This document shows, piece by piece, positions 898 through 54,119 of a stretch of DNA of 57,190 nucleotides. The notes below the pieces were generated by a model. That model worked only from the letters and a program-made list of their open reading frames with translations. It was not told where the DNA came from and searched no databases. Source of the stretch: Rhodospirillaceae bacterium (lineage in GTDB: Bacteria; Pseudomonadota; Gammaproteobacteria; Burkholderiales; SG8-41). Where the stretch lies: contig JBLNBW010000298.1 in the NCBI GenBank assembly GCA_050260255.1, positions 1 through 57,190 of the forward strand. The letters run 5' to 3'. The stretch's first letter is position 1; every line of letters starts with the position of its first letter. Made by a program: the position numbers and the translations under genes.

Positions 898-1557
898 ATG
901 CTGCCAGTGCTGTCAATGCTCGAAACGCGCGTGCTCGGCGTGCTCGCGGAAAAAGAGCGCACCGTGCCCGACACCTATCCGCTGACGCTCAACGCGCTCC
1001 TCGCCGGCTGCAATCAGAAAACCAGCCGCGATCCGGTCCTCAATGCAACCGAAACCGAAGTGCAGGCCGCGATCGATAGCTTGAGAGGCATGTCGCTCGT
1101 CATCGAATCGAGCGGCGGCCGCGTCGCTCGTTATGCGCATAACATGGAGCGCGTGCTGCAGATCCCGCGGCAATCGACCGCGATATTGACCGTTCTCATG
1201 CTGCGCGGCCCTCAAACGGCAGGAGAGCTGCGCATCAATTGCGAGAGACTGCACAGGTTCGAGGACATATCATCCGTGGAGGCATTCCTGCACGAGCTCG
1301 CGCAGCGTCCGGCCGGCGCACTCGTCACCGAGCTTCCGCGCCAAGCCGGAACGCGGGAGACGCGCTGGCTGCATCTATTGTCCGGCGCCGCGCCCGCGCA
1401 TGACTTTCCAGAACAACCTGCCGCAGCCGCCCACGCGGGCACCGCTTCAACCGGCGAAGTGGCCGCGCTCAAGGCCAACGTGGCGCGATTGCAGGACGAA
1501 GTGGACGATTTGAAGGCGAAGCTCGAAAAAATCCTGAATGAGTTGGGCCTTAAGTAA
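898..1557 (+). CDS. yceH: YceH/DUF480 family protein
   Basis: 219 aa [43 protein letters not shown]... and [11 protein letters not shown]...[11 protein letters not shown] align with my recollection of E. coli YceH. Divergent from glpK. Confidence 0.8.
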
Positions 1558-3521: not shown

Positions 3522-6137
3522 CTAGCTCGTGCTGCTCTCCGGCATGAGGTTTTCCACGTCGGCGGCCGTGAGCGGACGGCCGAACAGATAGCCCTGCGCT
3601 TCTTCGCACCCGAGGCTGCGCAGCAGGTTCGCCTGCTCCTCGGTCTCCACGCCTTCGGCGATCACATTGAGGCGTAGCGTGCGCCCCAGCGACACGATGG
3701 TCGACACGATGGCGGTGTCGTGCGTGCTGCCGGTCAGCCGCGCTACGAAGGACCGGTCGATCTTCAGCGCCGCCACGGGCAACTGGGCGAGATAGCCGAG
3801 AGAGGAATAGCCGGTGCCGAAGTCGTCGAGCGCGATTTCAACACCCGCGTCGCGCAGTCGGGCGAGCTTCGCTATGCCGCTCTCGAGCGATTCCATAAGC
3901 ATCGATTCAGTAATTTCGACGCTCATCTGCTCCGGCATGCTGCCGGCCGCGGTGATGCCGTCCAATATGTCACCGACGAAGTCCGGCTGCCGCAATTGCA
4001 CCGCAGATACGTTGAGCGCGACCCTCGGTGGCTCGTAGCCTTTCGCCCGCCAGCGGACGCATTGGAAGGCCGCCTCCCGCACGGCCCATGCACCGACCTC
4101 AACGATCATGCCGGTTTCTTCAAGCAGGTGAACGAAGTCGTTCGGCAGCACGAGCGGTTCCCCGGCCGGTTGCCACCGCAGCAATGCCTCGAGCCCGGTC
4201 AGCTTTCCCGTAATGAGATTCACGCGCGGCTGGTAGTAGAGCACGAATTCGTTGCGATCGAGCGCGACGCGCAGGCGATTCTCCAGTCGCAGCTTCTCCG
4301 CGACTTTCACGTTCATTTCCGGCTCGTAGAAACAATAGCGCGAACCATGCCGCTTCGCCGTGTGCAATGCAGCCTCGGCGTTCTTCATGAGCGTGTTCGC
4401 ATTCGCGCCGTCGTCCGGGCACACGGCTATGCCGGCCCGCATCTGGACACGCAGTTCCTGACCGTTCAGGGTGAAAGGCGCGGCGACCGCGCTCAGCACC
4501 CGGCCCTCGAGCAGATGCACGATCTCGGACACTTCCTCCACTGCGGGAAGACCGAATGCGTAGCGGTCGCCGCTCAACCGGGTGAGCAGCGTCGCCTCGG
4601 ACAGGGCGCCCGTCAGCCTTTGCGCGAGCTGCTGCAGCACCGTGTCGCCGGCGGCCGTTCCGAACGTGTCATTGATGACGTGGAAGCGCTCGACGTCCAG
4701 CACTACGCATGCGACGTGAGAATGCGCCGTGCGGCCGCGCACCATCTGGTTCAAGCGGTCGAAAAACAGCGTGCGATTCGGCAGGCCGGTGAGGCCGTCG
4801 TAGTAGGCGAGGTAGTCCACGCGCTCGGTCTTCGCAATATGGTCGAGTGCAAACGAAATATCGCCGGCCAACTCGTCCAGCAGCTTCATCTCTTCGGCGT
4901 TGAAAAAGCCCGTTTCCGTCGCGTACAGCAATAGCACCCCGACGGCGGCGTCCTGCAGGAAGAGCGGCAATGCAGCGAGCGCGCGATAGCCGCGGCTCAA
5001 CGCTTCCTGCCTGTATATCATTCCTCCTTCCGTTGCGATGTCGTCGACGATAACCGGACGCTTGCTCCGTATGGCGCGCGCCGCAGCGCCGGCGTGCTCA
5101 CCCACGACGCGGTTCACGACGCCGATAGCCTTGAGATAGCCCGCTTCGTGGCCCCGATGGGCGACAGGCGACAGTCTGTTCGTTTGCGTGTCCACCACGC
5201 CTATCCATGCCATGCGGAAGCCCGCATGCTCGACGGCGATGCGGCACGCCTCGTCGAACAGTTTCGTCCGATCTTTCACTCTCACGATGACTGAGTTGAT
5301 GCCGCTCAGCATGGCATGTATGCGGTTTAGTCGCGCGATACGCTCTTCCTGCTTCTTGCGCAGCGTGATGTCGCTGGTGAGCCCGTCTATTCGCAAAATA
5401 GATCCGTCGTCTGCGCGCACTGCGTGGCCGCGCGAGTGCACCCATCGCACGCTGCCGTCGCCTCGAACGATGCGAAACTCCGCGTCGAACGGCAGGCCCT
5501 GCGTCGTCATCGCATCCCAGGCGGCCTCGACACGCGCCGCGTCCGGCGGAAACAGCGCGCGCCGCCAGTTTTCCGGGTTGTCAAGGAATTCCCGCGGCCG
5601 TCCCCAGATGAGCTCCACGGCCGGATTGAGATAGACGACCTCGCCGTTTGCGGACAGCGACCACACGGCGTCCGTGATCGATGCCAGTATGCTGTCGAGG
5701 CGGCTTTTCGTTTCCGCGAGTTCAGCTTCTGCCCGTGCGCGTGCGCGCCTGTCGCGGGCCTCCGCCAGCGCGCGCCTCACCACGGGCACGAGGCGATGCA
5801 GCCTGTCCTTCAGCACGTAATCGGTCGCGCCCCGCCTCATCGCTTCCACGGCGCGTTCTTCGCCTATCGTGCCGGAAACGAATATGAAGGGCACGTCGGG
5901 CACGCGCGCTGCAGCGAGCTGAAGCGCCGCGAGTCCATCGAACGCCGTCGGCAGAGTGAAATCCGATATGATGAGATCGGGCTTCGTGCTTTCCAGCGCC
6001 GCTTCGAATGCAGCTCGCGTATCGACCCGGTTAAATCCGCATCGCATGCCGGCACGCAAGAGCTCCCGCCGGCACAGCTCCGCGTCGGTTTCCTCGTCCT
6101 CCACGATCAGCACCGTGAGGTGCCGCTCCCCATCCAT
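3522..6137 (-). CDS. response-regulator receiver-PAS-GAF-GGDEF-EAL protein (c-di-GMP turnover)
   Basis: 871 aa. The N-terminus LTVLIVEDEETDAE...ISDFTLP is a REC domain. YYDGLTGLPNR...GDRYAF is a GGDEF domain. YYQPRV...EALLRW...EITES...DDFGTGYSSL...KIDRSF is an EAL domain. Confidence 0.9.
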   Translation of the reverse strand: MDGERHLTVLIVEDEETDAELCRRELLRAGMRCGFNRVDTRAAFEAALESTKPDLIISDFTLPTAFDGLAALQLAAARVPDVPFIFVSGTIGEERAVEAMRRGATDYVLKDRLHRLVPVVRRALAEARDRRARARAEAELAETKSRLDSILASITDAVWSLSANGEVVYLNPAVELIWGRPREFLDNPENWRRALFPPDAARVEAAWDAMTTQGLPFDAEFRIVRGDGSVRWVHSRGHAVRADDGSILRIDGLTSDITLRKKQEERIARLNRIHAMLSGINSVIVRVKDRTKLFDEACRIAVEHAGFRMAWIGVVDTQTNRLSPVAHRGHEAGYLKAIGVVNRVVGEHAGAAARAIRSKRPVIVDDIATEGGMIYRQEALSRGYRALAALPLFLQDAAVGVLLLYATETGFFNAEEMKLLDELAGDISFALDHIAKTERVDYLAYYDGLTGLPNRTLFFDRLNQMVRGRTAHSHVACVVLDVERFHVINDTFGTAAGDTVLQQLAQRLTGALSEATLLTRLSGDRYAFGLPAVEEVSEIVHLLEGRVLSAVAAPFTLNGQELRVQMRAGIAVCPDDGANANTLMKNAEAALHTAKRHGSRYCFYEPEMNVKVAEKLRLENRLRVALDRNEFVLYYQPRVNLITGKLTGLEALLRWQPAGEPLVLPNDFVHLLEETGMIVEVGAWAVREAAFQCVRWRAKGYEPPRVALNVSAVQLRQPDFVGDILDGITAAGSMPEQMSVEITESMLMESLESGIAKLARLRDAGVEIALDDFGTGYSSLGYLAQLPVAALKIDRSFVARLTGSTHDTAIVSTIVSLGRTLRLNVIAEGVETEEQANLLRSLGCEEAQGYLFGRPLTAADVENLMPESSTS

Positions 6138-47235: not shown

Positions 47236-50200
47236 TCAATCGACGGCGAGGAACAGCGCCACAGCCGCCGCCAGCGCCGCCGGTATGCCGTAGCGCTCGA
47301 AGTTCGACACCGAATCACCGACGATGATCTCGACCGGCAGTGGCGTGAGTTCCAGCACGCGGTTAGTCACCGAATCCTCGACAAGGCGCGTGAGCGAGTT
47401 CTTGCGGGCGGTGCTCATCACGATCTGGTCGCAGCGCAGCCGCCGCGCAGTGTGCGTGATGCACTTGGCGCGATCGCCGATCTCCGTGTGCACGGAGTAC
47501 GGTATGCCGAACCTGTCGAGCATCTGGCGCGCCGGCTCGAGCGCCTTCTCCGCGGCGGCACGATAGTAGTCCGCGCGGTTCCTGCGCGGCACGAAGCGTG
47601 CGATGCGGCTCGTGAGCGGCGTCTGGACGTTGAGCAGATGGACCTGCATCGTCGTATCGTTCATGAACTGCTTGATGACGTGCCTCACCGCCAACTCGGA
47701 GTTGGGCGAGCCGTCGACCGGAATCAGCACTTTTTGCATGGCATTCCGTCCTGTAGAAGTCATGAAGCCCAACTCGGCCGCGAATCGGTGCATCGCGGTC
47801 GCCCTTTGTGCCTTGCGCGCCTGCTGCGCCCCTCCCCCGGCCGCCCTGCGCGCGAAGTACAGCTTGAGGAGCTCCATCGCCGCCGGCGCGGCGAAAAAGA
47901 ACGGCAGCATGAGCAGCCAGTCGTCTGCGCCAAGCGGCACCGTATCGAAGAACGGCTGGAAGAAAGGCACGTAGACGACCATCATCACGAGCAGGAACGA
48001 CACGCCTACGGCCCATACCATCCAGCGGTTGGAGGTGAGTCCTATGGCGAAGATGCTACGGTATTCGGACCTCGCGGTGAATGCGCGTATCAGCTCCGAA
48101 CCGCACAGCGTCACGAACGCAATGGTCTGCGCGGCTTCGAGGTGGCCCGGATAGCGCTGCAGCGCGAGGAAGAACACGGTCAGTATGGCGACGGCGTCGA
48201 CCAGACCGACGATGGCTATGCCGAGCGCCATGTCGCGATTGATGACGTGCTCCGACGCCGGTCTGGGCGGGCGCTTCATGATGTCCGGATCGCCTTTCTC
48301 CAGCCCGAGGGCGAGCGCGGGCGCGCCGTCGCTCACGAGATTGAGCCACAAGAGCTGCACCGGCCGCAGCGGAATCGGCATACCGGCCAGCATGGCACCG
48401 AACACGATCAGGATTTCGCCGATGTTGCAGGCGAGCAGGAAGTACACGAACTTGCGGATATTCGAGTAGATGATGCGTCCCTGCTCGATCGCCGCCACGA
48501 TGCTCGCGAAGTTGTCATCGGTGAGAACCATGTCGGCGGTCTGCTTGGCGACATCCGTGCCGGTGATGCCCATCGCGACACCGATGTCCGCGCGCTTGAG
48601 CGCCGGCGCATCGTTCACGCCATCCCCCGTCATCGCGACGACGTGCCCTCTCGACTTGAGCGCTTCCACGATGCGTGTCTTGTGCTGGGGCGACACGCGG
48701 CAGCACACGTCGAGCCTGTGCGCCTGCGCCGCGAGCGCTTCGTCGCTCATCTGCTCGATCTCCGGTCCGGTCAGGACGAGACCTTCGGGCGTGCGCAGCC
48801 CGATGTCGCGCGCGATGGCTTCGGCCGTGTCCTTGTAGTCGCCGGTCACCATGATGCTCTTCAGTCCGGCTCCCCGCGCCACCTTGAGCGCCTCGATCGC
48901 TTCCGCGCGCGGCGGATCGATCATGCCCAGCAGCCCGACGAACACGAGGTCCTTCTCTATCGTGTCCGGGGCCACCTTTTCGGGCCGCGCAGCAAGCGGA
49001 CGATAAGCAACGGCCAGCACGCGCAGCGCATTGCTCGCCATGTCGTGGTTATGCTCGAGGATTTCCGCGCGCATCTTCGCCGTGAGCGGAACGGACTCGC
49101 CGTTGTCGGAGCGGCGAGCGCAAAGATCGAGGATCACATCGGGTGCGCCTTTCACGAACGCGACCACCGGCGGATAGCTTACGCCTGAAGCGAAGGCGTG
49201 CCCATCGCCTGGCTCGAACGTGTGGATGGTGGTCATGCGCTTCCTGTCCGAGTCGAAAGGTATCTCCTGGACCCGGGGCAGCAGCTTTTCCAATTCCTCG
49301 CGCACGCAGCCGCTTTTCGCCGCCGCCACGACCAGCGCGCCCTCCGTCGGATCGCCAACGATGCGCCACGACCGCTTGCCGGCTTCGTCGCACGTTTCCT
49401 CCAGCTTTGCGTCGTTGCAGATGAGTGCCCCGTGCAGCAGCAGCTGCGCGTCGGCATCCTTGCGCGGATCGAACGGCTCGGCGCCGATGAAAAACTGCCC
49501 CAGCGGGCTGTAGCCCTCTCCGGTGATGCGCAGCCGCTTGCCCCCGGCCCAGCCCTGCACGACGGTCATCTCGTTCTGCGTCAGCGTGCCGGTCTTGTCC
49601 GAGCACACCACCGTGGCGCAGCCCAGCGTCTCCACCGCAGGGAGCTTACGGATCAGCGCGTGGTGCCTGATCATGCGCTGCATGCCGAGCGCAAGACAGA
49701 TGGTGACGATCGCCGGCAGGCCCTCGGGCACGGCCGCGATCGCAAGGCTCACCGCGGTCATGAACAGATTGACGATATCCTTTTTCTCGGCGCGGAGGTA
49801 CTCCACGAGCCCGCCCTGCAGCGCGGACGCGAGCTGCGTATCGCGCAGCAGCCCGTAGACGAACACCAGCGCGCAGATCGCGAGGCATGCCGTGCCCAGC
49901 ACCTTGCCCAGATGCTCGAGCTTGCGTTGCAGCGGCGTCGGCTCCGCCTCGAACGACTGGATCATTTCCGCGATGAGACCGATCTGCGTGTGCATCCCCG
50001 TCGCCGTTGCGATGCCTTTGCCGCGCCCGTAAGTGATGAGGCTCCCCATGAACGCGCTGTTACTGCGGTCGCCCAGCGGTATGTCGCTCGCCAGCACGGC
50101 ACCCGCCTGCTTTTCGACCACGACCGACTCGCCGGTGAGCGACGCTTCGTCGATCTTCAAGTTCACGCTTTCCGTGAGCCGCAGGTCGGCCGGCACGTAA

Positions 50201-50640
50201 TTGCCCGCTTCGAGCAGCACGACATCTCCCGGGACGATGGCCCGCCCCGGCACCGTGAGCTGGCGGCCGTCCCGTATCACCTGCGCGTTGGGCGCGGACA
50301 TCTTCTGCAGCGCTTCGAGCGCCTGCTCGGCCTTGGACTCCTGCACCACGCCAACGACCGCGTTGAGCATGACAATCACCATGATCGCTATGGAATCGAC
50401 GTACTCTCCGAGCAGCAGCGATACGACGGCGGCGACGACCAGAATGATGACGAGATAATTGTTGAACTGCTCCCACAAGAGCGCGAGAAACCCGGGCCGG
50501 GCACGCTCGGTGAGCTCGTTCGGGCCGTACGTCCGCAGCCGGGCTTCGGCCTCCTCGCTGGTAAGGCCGTGCATGAGATCGGTTCTCATGCTCGCGACGA
50601 CTTCGGCGACCGGCGCGCCATGCGCATGCGTGTCGTGCAT
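47236..50640 (-). CDS. P2-type (Ca2+/Mn2+-like) cation-transporting P-type ATPase continuous with a C-terminal USP domain
   Basis: Start at MHDTHAHG with GGGAGAG upstream. [42 protein letters not shown] and [11 protein letters not shown] are present. After TM10 there is no stop; the frame continues into [21 protein letters not shown]... (USP fold, 47236..47739), which ends in a hydrophobic tail. Confidence 0.9.
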
Positions 50641-50764
50641 TGCGACTCTCCCGGTGAAGACGACAAGCGCAGTATGGTCACGCGCGACGCGCGTGAAAAT
50701 TCGAAAGATGCAACGCTCGCCGTTACGAATGCGCAACTTCGCGCACGAATCGCCAAGCCTGCAT

Positions 50765-50777
50765 TTACGATTCGTAA
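50765..50777. promoter_or_regulatory. TTACGA-T-TCGTAA perfect inverted repeat (T-N11-A LysR-type box candidate)
   Basis: Lies in the ATPase/LysR divergent intergenic region. A related half-site, TTACGAAT, sits about 40 bp to the left (about 50722). Confidence 0.4.
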
Positions 50778-50851
50778 CCGATCGCGCCTTGACGGGCGGC
50801 ACACCGCGGTGCTAAAAAGTTTGCGTGCTCGGCGTATCGCCGGCACGACCC

Positions 50852-50957
50852 CAGAGGGGAGTAGCTACAGCAGCCGCAAGGCTGTTGCGAGGCGGCCGTC
50901 AACACGGGCTCACAGCTCCGGCCGCAGCGGCATCCGAGGATGCGGGCGAGACCTTTG
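50852..50957 (+). promoter_or_regulatory. yybP-ykoY (Mn2+) riboswitch-like aptamer
   Basis: Reads CAGAGG-GGGGAGUAGC, then a hairpin CAGCAGCC-GCAA-GGCUGUUG and a helix GCGGCC...GGCCGC. A hairpin GCAUC-CGAG-GAUGC follows, then GGGCGAGACC-UUUG. The outer CAGAGG/CCUUUG pair closes P1. The 5' and 3' conserved strands match my recollection of the family consensus. Confidence 0.6.
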
Positions 50958-50985
50958 CCGACAGGTGAAGGTTTGCTCCCGAAAA

Positions 50986-51026
50986 CAGCGGCCTTCACCT
51001 GACGAGGGAAGGCCGCTGTGCTTTTG
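50986..51026 (+). terminator. intrinsic-terminator-like hairpin of the riboswitch expression platform
   Basis: CAGCGGCCUUC-(11-nt loop)-GAAGGCCGCUG is a perfect 11-bp stem followed by UGCUUUUG. It lies 35 nt before the LysR ATG. Confidence 0.55.
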
Positions 51027-51060
51027 CACGGCGGGAATGGCCAACTGCGCGGAGAAAGCC

Positions 51061-52032
51061 ATGTCCCACACCGACATCCACCGGTATCTACGTCACGGTA
51101 CGCTGCCGCAACTGCGGGTGTTCGAAGCAAGTGCGCGATTGGGAAGCCTCGCACGCGCCGCCGAGGAACTGCACATGGCGGCGCCGACGGCTTCCGTGCA
51201 GATCAAGAAGCTCACGGACACGCTCGGTGTACCGCTGTTCGAGCAGGTGGGCCGCCGCATGTACCTCACCGAGGCCGGACAGCGCCTGTACGAGAGCTGC
51301 ACCGACGTGTTTCGCGTGTTCGCCGAGCTCGAGCAATCGCTCGACAGCCTGCGCAGCCTGCGGGCGGGGCACCTGCGGCTCGCCGCAACATCGACGGCGA
51401 AGTATTTCGCGCCGCGCCTGCTGGGGGGCTTTCTCGAGCGGCACGCGGGCGTGGAGATCTCGCTGCAGATTCACAACCGCGAGGGGTTGATCGCACGGCT
51501 GGAGAACAACGCGGACGATCTCTACCTTTTCACCTATCCGCCGATGGAGAAAGACATCATCGTGCAGGCGTTGCTGCCCAATCCGCTCGTCGTGCTCGCG
51601 CGCCGCGATCATCCTTTGGCGCAGCGGAAAGCGATACCGTTCGCGCGGCTTGCCGAAGAGCCGTTCCTCATGCGCGAGCCGGGATCCGGCACCCGGATGG
51701 CGGTACTGAGACAGTTCGAGCAGCACGGTCTCACGCCGCGCACCAGAATGGAATTGAGCACGAACGAGGCCATACGCGAGGCGATACTCGCCGGCCTCGG
51801 TGTGTCGATCATGTCGCGCTACACCCTGGGGCTCGGCACGGAAGCGAGCGATCTGATATGCCTCGACGTCGAGGGATTCCCGCTCGAAAGCCACTGGCAC
51901 TTGGTGTATCCGGCCGGCAAGCAGCTTTCGGCCGCGGCGCAGGCATTCATGACGTTCACGCGCGCCGAGGCGAAGAACCTGGCGATCGCCGGATTCGGCG
52001 CGGCGACGCGAATCGATACCGCGCGCGCCTAG
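51061..52032 (+). CDS. LysR-family (CbbR-like) transcriptional regulator
   Basis: Real part of the 944-aa ORF 49198..52032, with GGAGA 5 nt upstream of the ATG. LPQLRVFEASARLGSLARAAEELHMAAPTASVQIKKLTDTLGVPLFEQVGRRMYLTEAG is the HTH. ATSTAKYFAPRLLGGF...FLMREPGSGTR... is CbbR-like. Confidence 0.9.
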   Translation: MSHTDIHRYLRHGTLPQLRVFEASARLGSLARAAEELHMAAPTASVQIKKLTDTLGVPLFEQVGRRMYLTEAGQRLYESCTDVFRVFAELEQSLDSLRSLRAGHLRLAATSTAKYFAPRLLGGFLERHAGVEISLQIHNREGLIARLENNADDLYLFTYPPMEKDIIVQALLPNPLVVLARRDHPLAQRKAIPFARLAEEPFLMREPGSGTRMAVLRQFEQHGLTPRTRMELSTNEAIREAILAGLGVSIMSRYTLGLGTEASDLICLDVEGFPLESHWHLVYPAGKQLSAAAQAFMTFTRAEAKNLAIAGFGAATRIDTARA

Positions 52033-52145: not shown

Positions 52146-53048
52146 TCATTGGCTCTTCGCCGCCTTCTCCTTCTGCAACTGCGCCTGATAGAGCTTCTCG
52201 TAGTGCTCCACCTTCGCGAGATATCCGGCAGGGTCCACGAAACGCTTCGGATCGTACGCGTCGCCCGGCTTGTACTTCTGATGCAGGTTGAAATGCCCCG
52301 CATGGGACGAAACCCACACATCAGGCTTCATCTGCTTCTGCTTCGCGAACGTGCTCTCGTAGGCCTGCGTGATTCCGGGGAAGCCCGGCATGCCGCTTAC
52401 CGTAACGCCGGGATTGATCGTTCCCATGTTGACGATCAGCACGTTGTACGGCTTGCCGCCTTCCTGCACGGTATAGCTGAAGCTGCTCGCGCCCTTGGTA
52501 TGCCCCGGATGGTGATGCAGCGTGAGCTCGACTTCGCCGAGCCGCACCTTGTCGCCGTCCTTCAACCGCTGATCCACCTTGATCGGCTCGTAGATCGCGC
52601 CGCGTCCCTGCGGGTAGCGGTAGTCCATGCTGCCGCCGGATTCGAGCAGGTCCGCGTCGTCCTCGTGCATCAGCATGCGCGCGCCGGTGAGTCGCTTGAT
52701 CTCCGTCATGCCGGCGACATGGTCCCAGTGGCCATGAGTCGCGAGCAGCAGCTTGATGTCGCCGAACTTGAAGCCCAGCTTTTCGATGTTGGCGCGTATC
52801 CCGGGCACCGAGTTATTGATGCCGGTGTTGATCAGGATGTTGCCGTCGCGCGTGGTGATGAGGTAGACCGCGAGGTCGTAGGTGCCGACGTAGTACAGGT
52901 TGCCGATGATGCGCAGCGGCTCGAACGGCCTCACGTACGCTTCGTTGGTGACGGGAAGCTGGCGGAAGCCCTGCGCCTGTGAGGCGAGCGGCACCGCGGC
53001 GGCGAGCCCGGCGACCAGTGCGGCCGCCGCGAGGTATGCGACTCTCAT
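52146..53048 (-). CDS. subclass B3 metallo-beta-lactamase-like exported hydrolase
   Basis: Internal ATG with AGGGAG upstream, followed by a signal peptide. PLRIIGNLYYVGTYDLAVYLITTRDGNILINTG...LLATHGHWDHVAG...HHHPGHTKG matches the B3 layout (HxHxDH). Confidence 0.8.
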   Translation of the reverse strand: MRVAYLAAAALVAGLAAAVPLASQAQGFRQLPVTNEAYVRPFEPLRIIGNLYYVGTYDLAVYLITTRDGNILINTGINNSVPGIRANIEKLGFKFGDIKLLLATHGHWDHVAGMTEIKRLTGARMLMHEDDADLLESGGSMDYRYPQGRGAIYEPIKVDQRLKDGDKVRLGEVELTLHHHPGHTKGASSFSYTVQEGGKPYNVLIVNMGTINPGVTVSGMPGFPGITQAYESTFAKQKQMKPDVWVSSHAGHFNLHQKYKPGDAYDPKRFVDPAGYLAKVEHYEKLYQAQLQKEKAAKSQ

Positions 53049-53246
53049 GTGGATCTCCCTGGTGATGTGGTGAAGCCGCGCCACCTCCTGCCTGCGGCGT
53101 TGACGCGGGCCCGTCCTGCGACGGTCGGGAAAGTGTAGCACCGCCCCGCGCGAACGTTCGCCCGACGCGCCTGCCGGGATGGTGTGAAAGCTGCCGCCTG
53201 CCCGTACCCGGCACGCCGCAGCATTTGCCGAGCGGTTTGCGTCGGG

Positions 53247-54119
53247 CTAGCGCAGCAGAAAAGGCCTGGTCGCTTCGACGAATCCGGAAGGATTGTCGAG
53301 CATCACATGGTGATACGTGTTCTCCGCTTCGCTGAGCTCGAGCTGCGGGCAAAGCCGTCGCGCGTCCGCATAGACCTCGGGCGTGATGCGCTCGCTGTGG
53401 CTGCCGCGCACGAGCAGCGCGGGGATCTTAATGCGGCTCCAGTAAGGACGGCCGTCGTGATCTTCACGCGTCGCATACACCGCGCGATCGAACTTGAGCT
53501 TCCACGTGCCGTCGGGCAGCTGGCGGCCGCTGTGACGTGCGATGTGATGCACGACTTGCGGCGCAGCCACCGAATGCCCCGGGCGCAGGCGATAGCGTGA
53601 GACGAGCTCCTGCTGCGATGCATAAATGCTGCCCGGCTTCTTTCCCACGTCGCGCAGCCTCGCTACGCGCTCCGGCGTCAGATGGAAAGTGCTGTCGACG
53701 ACGATCAGCTTCTTCACGCGCCCGGGATACGTAGCCGCATAGAGCTGCGACACGATGCCGCCCATCGAATGTCCCATCAGCACGAAATCCTTGAGGTCGA
53801 GCGCATGCACCGCCGCGTCCAGATCGGATGCGTAATCGCGATACAAGTACGAGGCCGGCGTCTTCCACTCGCTGTCGCCGTGGCCCCGCAAGTCGATCGC
53901 CAGTACGTGAAAGTCGCGCACGTAAGCTCCCGCGACGAAATCGTACCAGTGGGCGTGCGCAGCTCCACCATGCACGCACAGCATCACCGGGCGCCCCGCG
54001 GTGCCGTAGTCGAGGTAGTGCAGCTTAAGGCCGTTCGCCTCGACGTAGCGGCTGGTGGAGGGCGCGGGTGTGAGCGCGGGCGTCGCGGCTGCGCTCGTCG
54101 CGTGCGGCTGTGAGTTCAT
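53247..54119 (-). CDS. alpha/beta-fold hydrolase
   Basis: 290 aa. VMLCVHGGAAHAHWYDF...DLRGHGDS...LMGHSMGG (nucleophile elbow GHSMG) are present. Confidence 0.85.
   Translation of the reverse strand: MNSQPHATSAAATPALTPAPSTSRYVEANGLKLHYLDYGTAGRPVMLCVHGGAAHAHWYDFVAGAYVRDFHVLAIDLRGHGDSEWKTPASYLYRDYASDLDAAVHALDLKDFVLMGHSMGGIVSQLYAATYPGRVKKLIVVDSTFHLTPERVARLRDVGKKPGSIYASQQELVSRYRLRPGHSVAAPQVVHHIARHSGRQLPDGTWKLKFDRAVYATREDHDGRPYWSRIKIPALLVRGSHSERITPEVYADARRLCPQLELSEAENTYHHVMLDNPSGFVEATRPFLLR

Follow-up and report, generated by a model that had tools for sequence, protein, structure and literature searches.

We analysed positions 1 to 57,190 (nucleotides, nt) of contig JBLNBW010000298.1 of a Rhodospirillaceae bacterium (assembly GCA_050260255.1, placed by GTDB in the Burkholderiales), a stretch which is called the window below. 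On its plus strand, at 50852-50957, lies an aptamer of the yybP-ykoY type. It is very probably a real and conserved member of that family which controls the gene of a LysR-type regulator starting at 51061, and a P-type cation ATPase gene runs divergently on the other strand. The conserved module of riboswitch, regulator and divergent exporter suggests a two-step circuit for metal export, in which RNA acts first and protein second. We consider it fairly likely that the whole circuit works as the original prediction proposed from the DNA letters, with Mn2+ turning on the synthesis of the LysR protein and the LysR protein then controlling the pump.

The aptamer has GGGGAGUAGC on its 5' side and GCGAGACCUUUG on its 3' side, and its fold is a four-way junction. 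GGGGAGUAGC stands directly 3' of CAGAGG (50852-57), and the 3' end of the aptamer reads GGGCGAGACC-UUUG, inside which CCUUUG (50952-57) pairs with CAGAGG to give the helix P1.1 (50852-57/50952-57). The internal loop L1 is made of GGAGUA (50858-63) on the 5' side and GAGA (50948-51) on the 3' side, and P1.2 (50864-67/50944-47) follows it. The P2 hairpin (50869-75/50880-86) is capped by the GNRA loop GCAA. The long P3 (50888-50929) consists of P3.1 (50888-98/50919-29), the internal loop L3 (50899-905, UCAACAC, with the predicted metal-contacting adenosine at 50901) and P3.2 (50906-09/50915-18). P4 (50930-34/50939-43) reads GCAUC-CGAG-GAUGC. Both P1 strands, the GNRA-capped hairpin and the two further helices that the original prediction had drawn are all present where it placed them. 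A further plus-strand hairpin, P0 (50825-50846), lies directly 5' of the aptamer, is conserved and is seen in constrained folds too; a hairpin of -6 kcal/mol or better is found in 37 of the 38 LysR-linked leaders, their sequences being different. P0 is outside the described yybP-ykoY consensus, and its role could lie in guiding the fold or in stabilising the 5' end.

A genome scan with the LysR protein gave 70 loci, 39 of which encode orthologues (41-68% identical), and the rest only distant LysR proteins. All the orthologous loci belong to Burkholderiales or Rhodocyclales, including Ramlibacter, Propionivibrio and Uliginosibacterium, and the module is carried by the cultured strains Ramlibacter sp. 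AN1133 and Uliginosibacterium sp. 31-16. On the LysR strand, GGGAGTAG is located 130-250 nt upstream of the LysR start in every one of the 38 orthologous loci having upstream sequence, and RAGACC is found 80-120 nt beyond it in the same 38 loci; the aptamer motifs occur in 0 of 28 loci that encode only distant LysR proteins. An alignment of the 38 LysR-linked copies (A1) contains the invariant blocks GGGAGUAG, CGUCA, CCGG and AGACC with variable sequence between them.

Given A1 without prior input, RNAalifold returned the same four-way junction with P1.1, L1, P1.2, P2, P3.1, L3, P3.2 and P4, and compensatory changes occur at 23 of its 35 pairs. For our own pair counts, P1.1 was placed in the register favoured by L034 (CGAAGG/CCUUCG) and L035 (CCCUAGG/CCUGGGG). 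Standard pairs fill 95.8% of the cells, compared with 34-43% after a shift of the 3' partners by 1-3 columns. Double-sided changes are present at 24 of the 36 pairs, over 128 cells, and none of 500 shuffles reaches any of the observed measures of pairing or covariation. The compensatory change in homologous regions on which the original prediction had staked its aptamer is thus strong. G-U pairs are frequent, for example U-G in 33 sequences at columns 54-106; on the other strand these would turn into A-C mismatches, which fixes the LysR direction as that of the RNA.

Members of the yybP-ykoY family are described as having two coaxial legs that meet at a junction, a 7-nt L3 in which the N7 of an invariant adenosine contacts Mn2+, a sarcin-ricin loop (SRL)-like L1 with a conserved adenosine in A-minor contact with a P3.1 G-C pair, and a switch helix, P1.1 (PMC6754395, PMC12153347). 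The same two legs are found here, one with P1.1/L1/P1.2 and P2 and the other with P3.1/L3/P3.2 and P4. The L1 strands GGGGAGUAG (5') and (G/A)AGACC (3'), with the A-minor adenosine included, are invariant in the 38 sequences and identical to those of E. coli mntP and alx. CGUCA at the start of L3 is invariant, and so are the pairs next to L3 (columns 55-105, C-G, and 56-104, G-C). L3 itself reads UCAAnAC with an invariant A at the third position, to which we assign the metal contact by analogy.

The profile search was less informative. An Rfam scan found no family at gathering score anywhere in the window. With permissive filters, RF00080 gave a local match only, of 7.5 bits over 50844-50918 (gathering cutoff 45); 16 orthologous loci gave no match at gathering level. 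The plus-strand match above the gathering threshold that the original prediction expected was therefore not obtained, and the positive control, the E. coli K-12 mntP leader (L071), likewise stays below the cutoff with 41.6 bits. The copy of RF00080 used here (Rfam 15) has 177 positions, treats GGGGAGUAGC as unpaired and ends at the 3' strand of P4, so it is without the P1 closure and the GCRAGACC strand. Its match to E. coli mntP stops at 2558, and the GGCGAGACC strand (from 2560) is outside the model. Because E. coli mntP also fails, and P1 and the 3' strand are unmodelled, the RF00080 score says little about membership. An annotation that relies on a gathering-level match of this copy would miss the whole group.

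A covariance model, R1, for which only LysR-linked copies were used, was run with the filters off over 12 kb around E. coli mntP and alx. R1 recovers the riboswitches of mntP (L071 2463-2574, 46.8 bits, E 4.6e-10) and alx (L072 2373-2501, 43.3 bits, E 3.3e-9), each at full length and on the correct strand, while the next-best match in this search has 10.6 bits. With the same model, a single copy is detected in the window (93 bits), as is one on the LysR strand of each of the 38 loci. The family match drawn in the original prediction is borne out by the L1 strands, L3 and the junction, and by this recovery of mntP and alx; on its sequence and structure, the element is filed as a member of the yybP-ykoY family. 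The LysR-side aptamer of L027 (3777-3909, plus strand) is degenerate, with 45.5 bits compared with 72-120 elsewhere, and the TerC-side copy in the same locus is intact; this may be a decay of the LysR input. L003, L004, L005 and L027 are contigs of metagenome-assembled genomes (MAGs) labelled "uncultured Enterobacteriaceae" that carry the Burkholderiales-type module. Their nearest relatives are Burkholderiales MAGs, and the Enterobacteriaceae labels are probably wrong.

The LysR gene is read as monocistronic and has a leader of about 235 nt, and constrained folding of the predicted leader (50825-51075) indicated a possible expression platform. When the 5' strand of P1.1 is left unpaired, which is also the unconstrained minimum, ACCUUUGCC (50951-59) pairs with GGUGAAGGU (50964-72) and a terminator-like hairpin is present (-128 to -132 kcal/mol). 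When P1.1 is enforced, CAGGUGAAGG (50962-71) pairs with CCUUCACCUG (50992-51001) and the terminator stem is broken (-118.6 kcal/mol). As modelled, the leader holds an ON-switch platform in which the 3' strand of P1.1 is the competitor. Three plus-strand elements make up this predicted platform. The anti-antiterminator hairpin (50951-50972) is the pairing of the P1.1 3' strand with GGUGAAGGU when P1.1 is open, and it shows one-sided and compensatory changes in orthologues. The antiterminator (50962-51001), formed by CAGGUGAAGG with CCUUCACCUG when P1.1 is closed, covaries, with GGCGAAG/CUUCGCC in L002 and L006 and GGCAAAGG/CCUUUGCC in L030. The terminator-like hairpin (50986-51026) pairs CAGCGGCCUUC (50986-96) with GAAGGCCGCUG (51008-18), followed by UGCUUUUG (51019-26); it belongs to the minimum-energy, OFF structure and is kept in most orthologues.

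Other platforms are found on the same aptamer. In L015, L017, L036 and L037 a hairpin that holds the 3' strand of P1.1 is followed by a U-run, as in a canonical direct terminator. The short leader of L026 carries CCUUUGCCUC, complementary to the Shine-Dalgarno region GAGGUAAAGG, a translational design like that of mntP and alx. Such a variety of predicted platform types, all acting through the same P1.1 strand, would be typical of true riboswitches. An equilibrium classifier of ON and OFF states over all loci revealed the direct-terminator variants; its minimum-energy fold misses the co-transcriptional decision, and its U-tail criterion was too strict. The LysR start codon itself is inside a conserved hairpin (51038-51062, plus strand), with AUGGC/GCCAU in the window and GCAUGGCGG...CCGCCAUGC in orthologues. 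A pairing relay that reaches the start codon, that is, translational control in the window, was considered and dropped, as the AUG hairpin is predicted in both the ON and the OFF fold.

To our knowledge, all characterised members of the yybP-ykoY family are ON switches, and the folds suggest how the element here might act as one. At low metal, P1.1 would be open and its 3' strand ACCUUUGCC would pair with GGUGAAGGU. This would leave CCUUCACC free, so that the terminator-like hairpin would be completed and little LysR mRNA would be made. Binding of Mn2+ would dock L1 against L3 and thereby stabilise P1.1. With P1.1 closed, GGUGAAGG would pair with CCUUCACC as the antiterminator, and read-through into the LysR gene would follow. 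In some orthologues the same P1.1 strand would form the terminator directly or would mask the Shine-Dalgarno sequence. From this model we infer that termination is the regulated step.

A conserved and structured leader might also serve without sensing a ligand, as a protein-binding or RNA-stability element or as the decaying relic of an exporter riboswitch, and the missing gathering-level match to RF00080 and the degenerate LysR-side copy of L027 (45.5 bits) could be taken in this sense. We consider this very improbable, because the ligand-binding loops are invariant down to 41% LysR identity, the covariation is strong, all three platform types use the 3' strand of P1.1, and R1 recovers validated riboswitches reciprocally. 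That invariant loops, covariation and platforms are all kept is not expected of a relic.

The gene downstream of the riboswitch encodes a CbbR/CmpR-like LysR-type regulator of 323 amino acids (51061-52032, plus strand) with a Shine-Dalgarno sequence GGAG at 51051-54. The ATG at 51061 had been named correctly, and the protein contains the domains HTH_1 (PF00126, E 2.2e-20) and LysR_substrate (PF03466, E 1.2e-55) and matches the Protein Data Bank entry 5y2v with E 1.6e-93. On the CbbR equivalog model NF045990 it scores 221.9 bits, well below the cutoff of 450; being so far below, it is by its sequence a distinct subfamily that is CbbR-like in sequence only. There are no cbb genes beside LysR, where the neighbours are ATPase or TerC genes. 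Since no gene is conserved downstream of LysR across the orthologous loci, LysR is the direct and sole conserved target of the riboswitch. In the window, LysR is followed by two convergent genes, encoding a metallo-beta-lactamase-fold protein (52146-53141, minus strand) and an alpha/beta hydrolase (53247-54119, minus strand); they are not conserved in the orthologous loci and are thus outside the module.

Upstream, on the minus strand, the divergent gene at 47236-50640 encodes the presumed target of LysR, a P2-type (PMR1/SERCA-like) cation ATPase with a C-terminal Usp domain (Pfam Cation_ATPase_N, E1-E2_ATPase, Cation_ATPase_C and Usp). The divergent P2-type ATPase named in the original prediction is thereby present on the minus strand, where its gene starts at 50640. 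Its best NCBIfam model is the PMR1-type IIA2 Ca2+/Mn2+ pump TIGR01522 (718.5 bits, cutoff 798.3), and it reaches 690.2 bits on the SERCA-type model (cutoff 703.4). The ATPase-Usp proteins are 70-80% identical in most loci of the ATPase type, down to about 46% in L008 and L033. The other type of divergent neighbour is a TerC-Usp fusion, which has only the Usp part in common with the ATPase-Usp protein. Its TerC domain passes the cutoff of TIGR03717 "R_switched_YjbE", in which we take "R_switched" to mean riboswitch-linked. The divergent partner in every locus is either ATPase-Usp or TerC-Usp, from two unrelated exporter families, and PMR1-like P-type ATPases and TerC (YjbE) are the classical exporter families of Mn riboswitches. 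The unusual context pointed out in the original prediction holds throughout the loci, with LysR as the sole conserved gene downstream of the aptamer and the exporter always on the other strand. The C-terminal Usp domain is seen on both exporter types (window about 47330-47740, minus strand; L004 2287-3573, minus strand; L030 2336-3604, minus strand).

R1 finds no aptamer on the minus strand of the window, that is, none on the pump mRNA. Twin divergent aptamers are present in several metagenomic contigs and in three genome loci: L024 (1069-1166, minus strand, and 1373-1512, plus strand), L027 (3506-3612, minus strand, and 3777-3909, plus strand) and L029 (3498-3594, minus strand, and 3811-3913, plus strand). 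In these three, as in L129 and L131, one aptamer faces LysR and the other faces TerC; L109 and L095 also hold twins. Twin divergent aptamers would be a feed-forward arrangement. The TerC proteins of L024, L027 and L029, which have their own aptamer, are unfused to Usp, and L029 has a separate Usp gene. L129 holds a third aptamer copy (4456-4555) before an open reading frame (ORF) that is Alx/TerC-like by eye.

We also searched for the aptamer type in metagenome contigs with a context-agnostic pattern, GGGGAGTAGC-N12-42-CGTCAANACGG, and took 80 loci from at least 120 stretches; the counts that follow apply among the matches listed. The downstream gene on the aptamer strand belongs to the TerC/Alx family in 38 loci, encodes a P-type ATPase in 9 and a LysR orthologue in 8 (8 of 73 scorable), and is another gene in 18; the contig is too short to tell in 7. 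The LysR wiring thus amounts to about 1 in 10 copies of this aptamer type in the environmental contigs sampled. Six of the metagenomic LysR loci extend 300 nt or more upstream, and in all six a TerC (YjbE) or ATPase gene is divergent. The ORFs of 10 of the 18 loci with another gene encode Na+/Ca2+-exchanger family proteins, further TerC proteins, a carbonic anhydrase-UPF0114 fusion and an IS66 transposase, and no other regulator family is found in these ten. The transposase gene (L149 842-2377, plus strand) is probably an insertion. The carbonic anhydrase-UPF0114 fusion and Na+/Ca2+-exchanger family proteins stand directly downstream of the aptamer in L088 (6512-7582, minus strand), L102 (589-1551, plus strand) and L125 (1031-2089, plus strand).

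The consensus core is the same in LysR-linked and exporter-linked copies, including the 3' strand GCGAGACC, on which the pattern set no condition. No other indirect argument speaks as strongly for a ligand shared by the two classes, probably Mn2+. A LysR-specific change in the aptamer core was looked for, and none was seen, L1 and L3 being fixed by the search pattern.

The RNA and the circuit could be as described and another divalent cation be sensed, such as Ca2+, or Mn2+/Ca2+/Cd2+ together, which would make the module a controller of Ca2+ or general cation stress. The best-scoring models for the pump are those of the PMR1 or SERCA type of Ca2+ ATPase, and Na+/Ca2+-exchanger family genes stand downstream of some copies of the aptamer type. 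Two further points also count against Mn2+ itself: yybP variants with altered metal specificity have been proposed (PMC7266159), and the L3 sequence UCAAnAC differs from the family majority ACAUACU (PMC12153347). We nevertheless judge a different cation to be unlikely, as the adenosine of the Mn2+-selective N7 contact, the third of L3, is invariant, L1 is canonical, and genes of the Mn exporter families TerC/Alx and YjbE stand behind the same core. PMR1-type pumps, moreover, transport Mn2+ too. The L3 found here is closest to the alx-type UCAUUAC, which is described as Enterobacterales-specific (PMC12153347). An L3 that starts with U (50899-50905; A1 columns 57-63) occurs here in four-way-junction aptamers of Betaproteobacteria, both LysR-linked and exporter-linked.

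An inspection of the region between the two genes indicated the anatomy of a LysR-controlled divergent promoter, with predicted operators. The promoter of the riboswitch and LysR is predicted at 50789-50818 (plus strand), with the -35 element TTGACG (50789-94), the extended -10 element TGCTAAAAA (50810-18) and a start near 50825. It has the form TTGACG-N18-TAAAAA with an extended TGn, and TTGAC/A-N17/18-TGCTAnAAn in orthologues. On the minus strand the predicted -10 element of the ATPase gene is CATACT (50671-50676), in a block CAGTATGG that is conserved across loci. The predicted ATPase leader, of only about 24 nt, is too short for the pump mRNA to hold a riboswitch. The possibility that the LysR leader controls the ATPase through antisense or transcriptional interference was rejected, as the predicted divergent transcripts do not overlap. 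Comparison of the intergenic region with plasmid records by BLAST gave no match.

Two candidate operators of the T-N11-A type lie between these promoters. Box 1 (50765-50777, TTACGATTCGTAA), a palindromic LysR-type candidate with the pattern TTACG-N3-CGTAA, is about 12 nt upstream of the predicted LysR promoter and is the sole such site in the window. It is found with at most 2 mismatches in 26 of 39 loci, compared with 0.7% of control windows from the same loci, and its variants are symmetric (TCACG...CGTGA). Box 2 (50723-50735, TTACGAATGCGCA; TTACGAAAGCG or TCACGAAAGCG in orthologues) lies at about -65 from the predicted pump start. Its spacing from Box 1 is constant at 41-43 nt (42 nt in the window), and its half-site mostly changes together with Box 1, in 12 of 13 scorable loci, these genomes being related and the loci not independent. 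A conserved block GAAAATTCGAAAGATGC (50695-50711; GAAAATTTGAAGTTTGTGATGC in orthologues), a candidate LysR activation site, is at about -39 from the predicted pump start. A box near -65 together with a block near -39 is the classical recognition and activation geometry of LysR-type regulators.

Judged from the synteny and these conserved boxes, LysR likely regulates the divergent exporter. It might instead, under the control of the riboswitch, regulate only its own gene or act on unlinked genes, so that the synteny would reflect nothing but a shared history. LysR-type regulators commonly autoregulate through boxes near their own promoter, and Box 1 is just upstream of the LysR -35 element; TerC in L024, L027 and L029 has its own riboswitch and would not need LysR. 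This explanation appears rather improbable to us, because LysR is paired in every locus with one of two unrelated exporter families that are both typical riboswitch targets, exporters without their own riboswitch have short leaders, and Box 2 and the conserved block are placed at about -65 and -39 of the predicted exporter promoter.

In the circuit that we favour, the LysR protein made under the control of the riboswitch would bind the T-N11-A boxes in the shared intergenic region and would activate the divergent exporter gene, which in the window has a short leader and no riboswitch of its own. In the window this exporter would be the PMR1-like P-type ATPase-Usp, and in other genomes it would be TerC (YjbE)-Usp. 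LysR probably autoregulates too.

Several observations speak against this picture. The window scores 7.5 bits on RF00080 where mntP scores 41.6, so the aptamer is atypical for that model. The terminator has a weak U-tract (4 U), and neither a terminator nor a promoter was called in the window by the consensus scanners; conservation and folding are the basis of the promoter and terminator assignments. At equilibrium the ON fold is less stable than the OFF fold by about 13 kcal/mol, and switching must thus draw on kinetics as well as on tertiary and ligand energy. Both the ON and the OFF state are predicted to have the hairpin around the start codon. About one third of the loci are without a clear Box 1, and the operators could serve autoregulation only, the target of LysR being read from synteny. 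The computation itself supplies the structure and its conservation, the place in the family, the link to LysR, the alternative pairings, the operators and the synteny; Mn2+ as the ligand, termination as the regulated step and the exporter as the target of LysR are inferred.

The riboswitch and LysR might also form a two-input controller, in which Mn2+ would set the amount of LysR through the RNA and a second effector in the CbbR-like pocket would gate the activation. We regard this as a possible but doubtful extension. Activation of the Usp-fused exporters, and perhaps of a wider regulon, would then require both conditions together (AND logic), and the twin-aptamer genomes (L024, L027, L029, L109, L129 and L131) would form a coherent feed-forward loop. 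If this were the case, LysR would be the first LysR-type regulator that responds to metal through its own mRNA, without binding the metal.

In the reviews and papers covered, the genes reported downstream of the yybP-ykoY riboswitch are transporters and membrane proteins only (PMC7266159, PMC8632737, PMC3766115), and direct binding of a transition metal is not known for any LysR-type regulator (PMC11672702). In the literature covered, which leaves out the supplements of Dambach 2015 and Price 2015, we found no regulator gene described downstream of a yybP-ykoY element and no metal riboswitch that feeds a LysR regulator, in agreement with the original suggestion that the arrangement is undescribed. 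The module of riboswitch, regulator and divergent pump is apparently an undescribed wiring built of known parts, and its aptamer is a new member of a known family. The accepted view of metal riboswitches is that of simple valves which act in cis on the mRNA of an exporter. In this module the same aptamer leads to a transcription factor, an arrangement that many genomes of the Burkholderiales and Rhodocyclales have kept. If the circuit is true, an RNA sensor controls a divergent gene that is out of its reach in cis, and LysR-type regulators have a route to become metalloregulators. There would be room for amplification, a second input and a wider regulon, with feed-forward loops where the exporter has its own aptamer. 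The Usp-fused TerC and P-type ATPase exporters would be flagged as a distinct, indirectly regulated group.

The aptamer has much in common with the known riboswitches of E. coli mntP and alx, L. lactis yoaB and the yybP-ykoY element of X. oryzae, namely the two-legged junction, the L1 strands GGGGAGUAG/GAGACC, a 7-nt L3 with the conserved A, P1.1 as the switch helix and the ON logic (PMC6754395, PMC12153347). Its L3 starts with U like that of the alx type, but is found here in a four-way junction, in Betaproteobacteria and with the extra 5' hairpin P0. Known Mn2+ riboswitches are located in the leader of an exporter gene (MntP, TerC/Alx or P-type ATPase), whereas here a transcription factor is downstream and the exporter is divergent. 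P-type ATPase exporters are under yybP-ykoY control in S. pneumoniae mgtA and L. lactis yoaB (PMC8632737, PMC11672702), and a PMR1-like pump is the presumed final effector here as well. In mgtA and yoaB, however, the riboswitch acts in cis on the pump mRNA, whereas the pump mRNA in the window is without an aptamer, encodes a Usp fusion and would be controlled by way of an intermediate protein. The control of mntP by MntR and Fur, and the systems of CbbR, CmpR and OxyR, likewise offer exporter control from a divergent or adjacent promoter and T-N11-A operators; compared with the protein metalloregulators, the metal input here would enter through the mRNA of the regulator. The V. cholerae c-di-GMP (cyclic di-GMP) riboswitch Vc2 upstream of tfoY is similar in that an RNA sensor sets the level of a regulatory protein in a two-tier cascade (bioRxiv 10.1101/617340, PMC4858559). 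It differs in riboswitch class, ligand and regulator family, and Vc2 is an OFF switch, whereas the riboswitch of the LysR gene is predicted to be an ON switch.

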